Positions 49,936 to 50,344 of a DNA stretch of 64,000 nucleotides are shown one piece after another. The translations under genes were made by a program, and so were the position numbers. The DNA comes from an uncultured Candidatus Saccharibacteria bacterium (GTDB lineage Bacteria; Patescibacteriota; Minisyncoccia; Phycocordibacterales; UBA9973). The stretch is from contig CAYIBP010000001.1 of assembly GCA_964361705.1 (NCBI GenBank), positions 26,727 through 90,726 of the forward strand. The letters are read 5' to 3'. The notes under the pieces are model-generated. The model was not told the origin of the DNA. It did not search any database and worked only from the letters and a program-made list of their open reading frames with translations. Position 1 is the first letter of the stretch. Every line of letters begins with the position of its first letter.

Positions 49936-50344
49936 TTGGTTTGTCTTTTTTGAGGGAATTGAAGAAGATCAAAAAGATAGACAGGATGAAATATAAGATT
50001 GTGCCTAAAAAGGCGGTAGCCTCTCTCTGTATCCAAAGAAAGCCATTGCCTTGAGTGGGACTAAATAAATAAATAAATAAATAAATAAATAAATAAATAA
50101 ATGTAAACTTTTTCCAAGAGGAAAAAGTTTTATCTTTTAGGTAAAAACCCACTATCGAGAAGATAAAAATGGGAACAGAAATTATGAACAAATTAGCTGT
50201 TCTATCGTCAATACAACAAAAGTTCTTATATATCTTTGGCAATCCTAATGCTTTGTTGAAATATGACACAAAGTACAGAACAACCATAAAAAAAGAAGCT
50301 GTAATTATTCTCTTTCTTGTAAACCACTCAAGTAATTTATCCAT
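49913..50344 (-). CDS. small membrane protein S2 with (AAAT)n-encoded FIYLFIYLFIYLF repeat
   Basis: 143 aa; ~4 TM helices; paralog of S1 and S3; begins 7 nt after the stop of protein B. Confidence 0.5.
   Translation of the reverse strand: MDKLLEWFTRKRIITASFFMVVLYFVSYFNKALGLPKIYKNFCCIDDRTANLFIISVPIFIFSIVGFYLKDKTFSSWKKFTFIYLFIYLFIYLFSPTQGNGFLWIQREATAFLGTILYFILSIFLIFFNSLKKDKPNVPASQN
50053..50092. repeat. (AAAT)10 tetranucleotide microsatellite inside S2 coding sequence
   Basis: Read directly. On the coding (reverse) strand it is (ATTT)n, translated I-Y-L-F repeats. Confidence 0.85.

Follow-up and report, generated by a model that had tools for sequence, protein, structure and literature searches.

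Phase variation driven by repeats is known chiefly from pathogens that are adapted to a host. Among the tetranucleotide contingency loci of Haemophilus influenzae and Neisseria are lic1A with (CAAT)n, lgtC with (GACA)n, mod with (AGCC/AGTC)n and hgp with (CCAA)n. Two further kinds of system are relevant here. One comprises the polymorphic toxin-immunity loci with orphan C-terminal/immunity cassettes (CdiA-CT/CdiI, Rhs, MafB and LXG), and the other the antibacterial lipase effectors with membrane or lipoprotein immunity partners, namely Tle/Tli of the type VI secretion system (T6SS) and TslA/TilA of the type VII secretion system (T7SS). Patescibacteria, or the Candidate Phyla Radiation (CPR), are tiny episymbionts, and surface and lipid-handling proteins are thought to govern their attachment to and exploitation of host bacteria. 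Here, we describe three small paralogous genes, S1, S2 and S3, in 64,000 nt of DNA from an uncultured Candidatus Saccharibacteria bacterium (contig CAYIBP010000001.1, positions 26,727 to 90,726). This whole stretch is called the window, and its own numbering is used. Each S gene follows a gene or gene fragment for an LCAT-like lipase, and S2 and S3 each contain an (ATTT)n tract. These tracts are probably slippage-prone coding microsatellites in helix 3 of a membrane protein that is most likely a partner of the lipase, with the number of units setting the S gene ON (in frame) or OFF (out of frame).

In mechanism, the S tracts match the tetranucleotide contingency loci of Haemophilus and Neisseria. 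They are perfect, intragenic and tetranucleotide, with about 10 units. In the S family, the gain or loss of a unit shifts the frame and truncates the product, natural ON and OFF alleles lie one unit apart, and the gene product is a cell-envelope protein. The differences concern the phylum, the unit, the conservation and the copies that are OFF. Unlike the tracts of Haemophilus and Neisseria, which lie near the 5' end, the S tract is made of A and T only, lies mid-gene (~57% into the open reading frame, ORF) and encodes a membrane helix. The known loci belong to one pathogen species each, whereas the S tract is conserved family-wide in many divergent uncultured lineages of Patescibacteria. The working S copy is apparently always ON, and the OFF state seems to be confined to secondary copies. 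In full-text literature searches, neither phase variation by repeats in Patescibacteria or the CPR nor an immunity-like gene switched by a repeat was reported.

The two tracts were read with Tandem Repeats Finder and directly. The tract of S2 is a perfect (TAAA)10 (50062-50101) followed by one further base to 50102, and that of S3 consists of 10.5 perfect units (54391-54432). Tandem Repeats Finder scored 100% matches for both, with 10.2 copies in S2 and 10.5 copies in S3. On the coding (minus) strand, both tracts read TTT ATT TAT TTA and so on, i.e. FIYLFIYLFIYLF(I), within intact ORFs. A first-pass annotation of the window had described in-frame (AAAT)10 repeats with a FIYL reading in both genes, and they are present as described. 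Its coordinates were essentially right for S3 (54393-54432) and ~9-10 nt too low for S2 (50053-50092).

A regular-expression scan of the 64-kb window for tetranucleotide repeats of at least four units returned the tracts of S2 and S3 only. For dinucleotide repeats of at least six units, it returned (AT)9 and (AG)7 only, both inside S1. The probability of a perfect ATTT encoding of FIYLFIYLFIYLF by chance was 1.1e-5 with the codon usage of the window (51 kb of long ORFs) and an estimated ~2.5e-3 with that of the S genes. The tracts are real and beyond chance.

The unit is not a multiple of three. In silico, one unit more or less gave truncated products of 95 or 111 aa for S2 (143 aa when intact) and of 89 or 102 aa for S3 (138 aa when intact). 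Over changes of one and two units, the products had 91-115 aa (S2) and 89-102 aa (S3). Three units gained or lost added or removed one FIYL and kept the frame of both genes. The comparison with contingency loci drawn in the first-pass annotation is borne out in this respect: the repeat is perfect and intragenic, and a single unit toggles between a full-length and a truncated product, both in silico and in natural homologs. S2 and S3 are both ON in the window. Their 10 units each equal the longest tract found in the family, and 10 units also occur in the OFF second copy of locus L005.

A perfect hairpin with an 11-bp stem (AAACTTTTTCC-4 nt-GGAAAAAGTTT, 50105-50130) directly adjoins the S2 tract and falls in the codons for DKTFSSWKKF; S3 has a weaker version only. 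This hairpin could influence slippage, or it could be due to chance. Another potentially slippery homopolymer, a C8 run (G8 on the coding strand, 28333-28340), lies inside an intact 488-aa ORF (27971-29437) and is in frame at present.

The mechanism that we propose is as follows. The tract would encode a hydrophobic helix at any length because every frame of (ATTT)n reads FIYL. The number of units modulo three would set the frame of the parts that follow: helix 4, with outer loop 2 before it and the lysine-rich tail after it, which together account for ~49 of the 143 residues of S2. Slipped-strand mispairing by one 4-nt unit would give a truncated protein of 89-111 aa with ~2.5 helices (OFF), and the opposite slip would bring the full protein back (ON). 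S1 would have become OFF via slips in (AT)n and (CT)n. The S protein would be made right after the secreted LCAT-like lipase/acyltransferase, probably in translational coupling with it. As the cognate partner of the lipase's variable C-terminal module, it may confer immunity-like protection on the cell's own membrane or act as a membrane dock. The S genes stand in an array of cassettes (lipase 3' end and S) that can also recombine.

A slippage-prone site with natural ON/OFF polymorphism in the family is supported by the data given below. Frequent, reversible and selected switching goes beyond what they establish and is unproven. The rate and reversibility of slippage in the source organism, and whether the variation is selected (bet-hedging) or only tolerated, are points that we infer.

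The S genes belong to a real, conserved, widespread and unnamed family. A profile search of 1.84 billion cluster representatives gave 841 clusters at E≤1e-3 and 164 at E≤1e-10, with nearly all members 125-150 aa long. The family had no match in Pfam or NCBIfam. The nearest homologs were found in metagenome-assembled genomes (MAGs) labelled Patescibacteria, Saccharibacteria, Paceibacterota, Nomurabacteria and Yonathbacteria. The place behind an LCAT-domain gene is kept across unrelated genomic neighbourhoods. The S ORFs are thus not spurious, a possibility that the first-pass annotation had raised. Many relatives have two to four S paralogs in an array, and 3'-end fragments of the large gene often stand between them.

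The membrane character suggested for the S proteins from the start agrees with the AlphaFold model of S2. This model, built from 75 homologs (predicted local distance difference test, pLDDT, 90.8; predicted template modelling score, pTM, 0.83), has four long helices (residues 10-33, 47-66, 71-94 and 107-131). The residues encoded by the tract form the second half of helix 3. No solved structure resembled the S2 model (best Foldseek E=1.5). A topology with both ends in the cytoplasm and two short loops outward is suggested by the Lys/Arg-rich N-terminus, by the loop that joins helix 2 to helix 3 (LKDKTFSSWKKFT) and by the C-terminal tail. The motif W-K-K-F-T-F-I-Y-L is the most conserved stretch of the S protein. 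In the greater part of the wider family, helix 3 is an ordinary hydrophobic helix with the pattern W..F, 14 residues, P. The FIYL repeat is the mark of one subfamily.

For a comparison of the repeats, the helix-3 region was taken from 24 distinct related loci in GTDB genomes, JGI and ENA metagenomes and Logan assemblies. The repeat number was not invariant: pure (ATTT)n tracts of 18-42 nt persist in many homologs that are only 29-59% identical in protein. In other homologs (L008, L014 and L015), the tract is interrupted by substitutions and the peptide periodicity is kept. The tract is likewise interrupted in L019a, the closest relative of S3.

The codons of the helix-3 segment were skewed towards the repeat in 36 homologs. 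Leu was encoded by TTA in 73% of cases (37% upstream in the same genes), Ile by ATT in 79% (56% upstream) and Phe by TTT in 97% (84% upstream). Moreover, in 240 kb of distinct locus DNA, all tetranucleotide repeats of at least four units and all dinucleotide repeats of at least seven units lie in S genes. Codon bias together with peptide conservation was considered as a full account of tract purity and was ruled out on probability, based on the codon usage of the window and the codon skew of helix 3. The tract is kept at the DNA level, beyond the peptide.

Natural alleles were counted in a tblastn census, in which the parts before and after helix 3 were scored apart; L030a, scored by an earlier regular-expression scan, is included. 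Of the 24 copies in which the tract was pure over 18 nt or more, 14 were ON and 10 were OFF at the tract. With an interrupted tract or none, 11 were ON and one was OFF at the tract. The OFF share of the repeat-bearing copies was ~40%. Two further OFF alleles were found via truncated database proteins, P0010 (locus L033) and P0083 (locus L034).

The OFF copies with an ATTT tract are L005b, L010b, L010c, L018b, L026b, L029, L030a, L030b, L031, L033 and L034. All 11 of them (nine from the pure-tract census) were restored by the gain or loss of a single unit. The restored reading is full-length, with the outer loop, helix 4 and the K-rich tail; in L031 and L034, it is open to the contig end. No other lesion was found in the downstream 50-60 codons remaining on the contigs.

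The best single piece of evidence for repeat-length variation is the pair L030 (JGI) and L032 (ENA). The two are ~99% identical over 1.2 kb; L032 is ON (P0084) and L030 is out of frame. Only three insertions or deletions separate them: one (TC) unit, T7 vs T8 and one TTTA unit. All three lie within the S homolog, a single gene with (TC)5-6, T7-8 and (TTTA)6.5-7.5 (positions 1000-1215 in L030 and 290-515 in L032).

S1, the third paralog of the window, is OFF and has a different repeat at the site of the (ATTT)n tract. The first-pass annotation had given this repeat as (TA)8 at 46161-46176, where (AT)9 is present instead at 46160-46177. It had also noted the premature end of the protein: the called ORF indeed stops right after the repeat (...NIYIYIL*). 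The conserved reading ...IIVIITPWSIRDQF... runs on in a second frame and comes back to the first after (CT)7 to give ...LIISKSLKKEKTDALSN. With (TA)+2 and (CT)+1, the family-profile score rose from 70.3 bits to 118.9 bits, i.e. the reading was restored by repeat-unit changes alone. An alternative genetic code as the reason for the in-frame stops was ruled out, since the conserved reading lies in the other frame and is regained by these changes.

In the S1 lineage (S1 of the window and L019b), the tract site holds (AT)9-11, with (AT)11 in the L019 ortholog. The S1 protein (P0058) is present in a collection of 15 billion proteins on four contigs, the longest of 138,522 nt. An exact look-up in the contig index gave no match to S1, despite this listing. 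With two dinucleotide-repeat breaks in S1 and a break in its lipase at a G7 run, the past repeat-mediated switch or decay suggested in the first-pass annotation is supported, and by more than was noted there.

A number of observations weigh against a switching function. Only one near-identical ON/OFF pair was found; the other locus pairs were at most ~84% identical in a pairwise flank comparison. The enrichment of OFF alleles in pure over interrupted tracts (10/24 vs 1/12) was marginal (Fisher p=0.059). No length variation was found for the two tracts of the window themselves: S2, S3 and 18 simulated unit variants (-5 to +4) were absent from the 15-billion-protein collection in exact look-ups. 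Exact look-ups also returned none of the restored forms of six OFF homologs or of the forms of two ON homologs with one unit more or less. The 12 assemblies of one aquifer population all had an identical ON allele with a 35-nt tract. In-frame length change of helix 3 is constrained: the segment has 14 residues in the counted in-frame ATTT-tract copies and 10 in L025b, following an in-frame loss of three units.

The position and state of the OFF copies belong to the same side of the account. None of the 12 S genes behind a demonstrably full-length lipase gene was OFF, compared to 6 of ~12 among second or later array copies (Fisher p=0.014). Four more OFF copies come from the ends of contigs, so that their upstream gene cannot be classified. 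The secondary position of the OFF copies also fits the decay of redundant copies. Cassette 1 of the window (S1 and LCAT copy 1) contains a total of three frameshifts, all of them at simple repeats: two in S1 and the one at G7 in its lipase. The L030 copy has breaks at three repeats. Both look more like accumulating damage than a clean switch.

Hence, the tracts might be a mutational hotspot without a switching role, a by-product of coding for a hydrophobic helix in AT-rich DNA. The working copy would be held in frame, and the OFF copies would be redundant orphan paralogs in decay. We regard this as a possible but rather unlikely explanation. The absence of OFF alleles behind full-length lipase genes, the multiple breaks in cassette 1 and L030, the uniform aquifer allele and the missing alternative-phase alleles all favour it, as do the interrupted tract in L019a and the repeat-free helix 3 in most of the wider family. 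However, a hazardous tract has been kept pure and long at 29-59% protein identity, with codons skewed to the repeat, and another lineage has a different repeat, (AT)n, at the same site. Each of the 11 ATTT-tract OFF copies is one unit away from ON and free of other downstream lesions, although S1 and the L030 copy do have further repeat-associated breaks. Moreover, L029, L031 and L033 are OFF as the sole S copy on their contig, directly after the 3' end of the large gene.

It is very improbable that FIYLFIYLFIYLF is simply a conserved helix encoded by a stable DNA repeat without consequence. The conservation of the W-K-K-F-T-F-I-Y-L motif and of the helix length, and the peptide periodicity that L008, L014 and L015 keep despite an interrupted DNA repeat, would be expected of such a fixed peptide. 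It is largely refuted by the whole-unit difference between the near-identical strains L030 and L032 and by 12 out-of-frame alleles exactly at the tract, and the purity of the tract is far over the codon-usage expectation.

There is just as little to be said for sequencing or assembly errors at low complexity as the source of the OFF copies, of S1 and of the G7 break in LCAT copy 1, with no biological length variation: many OFF alleles do come from short, low-coverage metagenome contigs (e.g. L034 at a coverage of 2) and homopolymer differences (T7/T8, G6/G7) are errors that sequencing platforms typically make, but differences of whole 4-nt and 2-nt units are atypical of base-calling, tracts of 18-42 nt are spanned by single reads, the OFF alleles stem from projects and assemblers that are independent of one another (JGI, ENA, NCBI MAGs and Logan), and the long ORFs elsewhere in the window are intact, one with a G8 run.

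The reading of the (ATTT)n tracts as slippage-prone microsatellites that set S ON or OFF is kept on these grounds as the probable one. The interpretation in the first-pass annotation as a whole is partly supported. The features of the locus are listed in Table 1.

Table 1. Features of the S/lipase locus in the window (ON, in frame; OFF, out of frame)
Feature	Position	Strand	Description
S1	45984..46439	-	Third paralog, OFF; called ORF 46155-46439 (94 aa); from three-frame translation and profile score
(CT)7 on coding strand, = (AG)7	46051..46064	-	In helix 4 of S1; second frame break
(AT)9 tract in S1	46160..46177	-	First frame break; at the site of (ATTT)n in the other paralogs
LCAT copy 1	46446..49935	-	5'-truncated, 62-87% identical; two ORFs, 47065-49935 and 46446-47114
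S2	49913..50344	-	143-aa paralog, 38-41% identical to S3, ON; behind 5'-truncated LCAT copy 2
(ATTT)10 tract in S2	50062..50102	-	Encodes residues 82-94, FIYLFIYLFIYLF, of helix 3
LCAT copy 2	50351..53293	-	5'-truncated, 980 aa, without signal peptide
2186-nt direct repeat, arm in cassette 2	51120..53305	-	Second copy, 100% identical
IS200/RAYT-like tyrosine transposase gene	53436..54110	-	Pfam Y1_Tnp 1.7e-17; NCBIfam REP_Tyr_transpos 78.6 bits, below the cutoff of 80
S3	54240..54656	-	138-aa four-helix membrane protein, ON; putative cognate partner of the full-length LCAT-like exoprotein; shares 70% identity with the L019 homolog
(ATTT)10.5 tract in S3	54391..54432	-	Encodes FIYLFIYLFIYLFI of membrane helix 3
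Full-length LCAT-like secreted protein	54663..61766	-	2367 aa; from translation, Pfam and NCBIfam
2186-nt direct repeat, arm in full-length gene	55432..57617	-	100% identical to 51120-53305

The 2367-aa protein has a signal-peptide-like N-terminus, followed by an S8 subtilase, PKD and fn3-like repeats, an LCAT-like alpha/beta hydrolase (GHSNGG) and a C-terminal domain. Its Pfam matches include Peptidase_S8 (7e-38) and LCAT (1.7e-11). PF02450 was found in all three lipase copies with 44.5-48.8 bits (gathering cutoff 21), and GHSNGG, a GxSxG nucleophile elbow, is present in the translation. The first-pass annotation had placed a giant gene upstream of each S gene. This is true of S3 only; the other two lipase copies are 5'-truncated and correspond to the last ~980 codons (the 3' third) of the 2367-aa gene.

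The 5' 2.2 kb of LCAT copy 2 are identical to the giant gene, and the last ~770 nt have diverged. LCAT copy 1 is broken at the G7 run 47099-47105 (coding strand), where copy 2 has G6. With one G fewer, the frame of copy 1 is regained (...WGEKTLAGIDY...).

All three S genes start 6 nt past the stop codon of the upstream lipase gene. The first base of the start codon is the seventh after the stop, in line with the 7 nt given before. Because the 6-nt spacer (AATTTT) contains no Shine-Dalgarno-like sequence, translation of S is suggested to be coupled to that of the lipase gene. In a promoter/terminator scan, promoter-like sites were no commoner than in shuffles. One such site, TTTGCA-16-TAAAAT, is present in front of every S gene; it falls within the conserved 3' coding end of the lipase and is too near the ATG.

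The layout of the locus shares several traits with the polymorphic toxin-immunity loci. Right after the 2186-nt stretch of 100% identity, the final ~770 nt of the lipase and the S gene are only 55-73% identical, i.e. the lipase 3' end and S diverge together. The 5'-truncated lipase copies 2 and 1 each have their own S and upstream homology to the main gene, and arrays of S paralogs are found in relatives. A secreted large protein, a variable C-terminal module and a small co-varying gene are thus combined at the locus. The likeness to orphan-cassette layouts lies in this joint divergence and in the arrays of relatives.

The array of L010 (4575-8650) has the same architecture as the window, again with 5'-truncated downstream cassettes. 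A 1422-aa protein is followed by four S genes, with a 302-aa C-terminal fragment of the large protein before the second and the third and a 155-aa fragment before the fourth. Of these S genes, only the first is ON; the second and third are OFF at their ATTT tracts, whereas the fourth has diverged and is split.

S is most likely a cognate membrane partner of the variable C-terminal module, by analogy with such systems. It is read in this way because the lipase C-terminus and S diverge together beside an identical arm and because relatives have arrays of fragments and S genes.

Unlike the polymorphic toxins, the lipases of the window have no recognised trafficking or toxin domain, and the repeated fragment of L010 lies past the lipase domain. 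No toxin or delivery domain (Rhs, CdiA/TPS, LXG, MafB or PAAR) was recognised in the lipase proteins, for which Pfam and NCBIfam gave only Peptidase_S8, PKD, weak fn3 and the LCAT-type hydrolase; because of this, no membership of the toxin-immunity families is claimed. A literature search on polymorphic toxin systems gave no case in which repeats drive frameshifts in the small gene.

The locus also resembles LCAT/PGAP1-like lipases (PF02450) and the lipase effectors of the T6SS and T7SS in its GxSxG motif (GHSNGG) and in the small envelope protein encoded directly downstream. Unlike those effectors, the lipase is part of a 2367-aa multidomain exoprotein with a subtilase, and its context is neither that of a T6SS nor that of a T7SS. 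S resembles no known immunity protein in sequence or in fold. Nothing relevant was found in the literature on polymorphic toxins or phospholipases in the CPR or Patescibacteria.

The 2186-nt arms, which are direct repeats, would allow the expressed gene and cassette 2 to recombine. Such an event would delete S3 and the transposase gene, which sits exactly between cassettes 3 and 2, and would join the expressed gene to the alternative C-terminus and S2.

The locus is flanked by rpoA-rplQ-rplM-rpsI on one side and by a gene for a peptidoglycan-binding protein, grpE and dnaK on the other. Two ORFs between dnaK/grpE and the cassette array, of 588 aa (41611-43377, minus strand) and 214 aa (44066-44710, minus strand), had no Pfam match.

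A wider reading would combine both layers into a two-tier surface variation in CPR episymbionts. A family-wide (ATTT)n/(AT)n contingency switch would act on the S arrays, recombination would swap the lipase C-terminus together with S, and S would be the partner of a lipase directed at hosts or competitors. We put this forward as a speculation that is doubtful in its full extent.

What is now defined is an unnamed, widespread family of small membrane proteins (841 clusters), its fixed partnership with secreted LCAT-like lipases and a specific site of slippage. If the slippage is adaptive, the tract would be a marker, readable from sequence, of population heterogeneity in interactions between CPR bacteria and their hosts or among CPR bacteria. 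If it is not, the S genes would be a clean natural case of how a microsatellite can last in the coding sequence of a membrane helix, since the hydrophobic peptide is the same in all frames of (ATTT)n.

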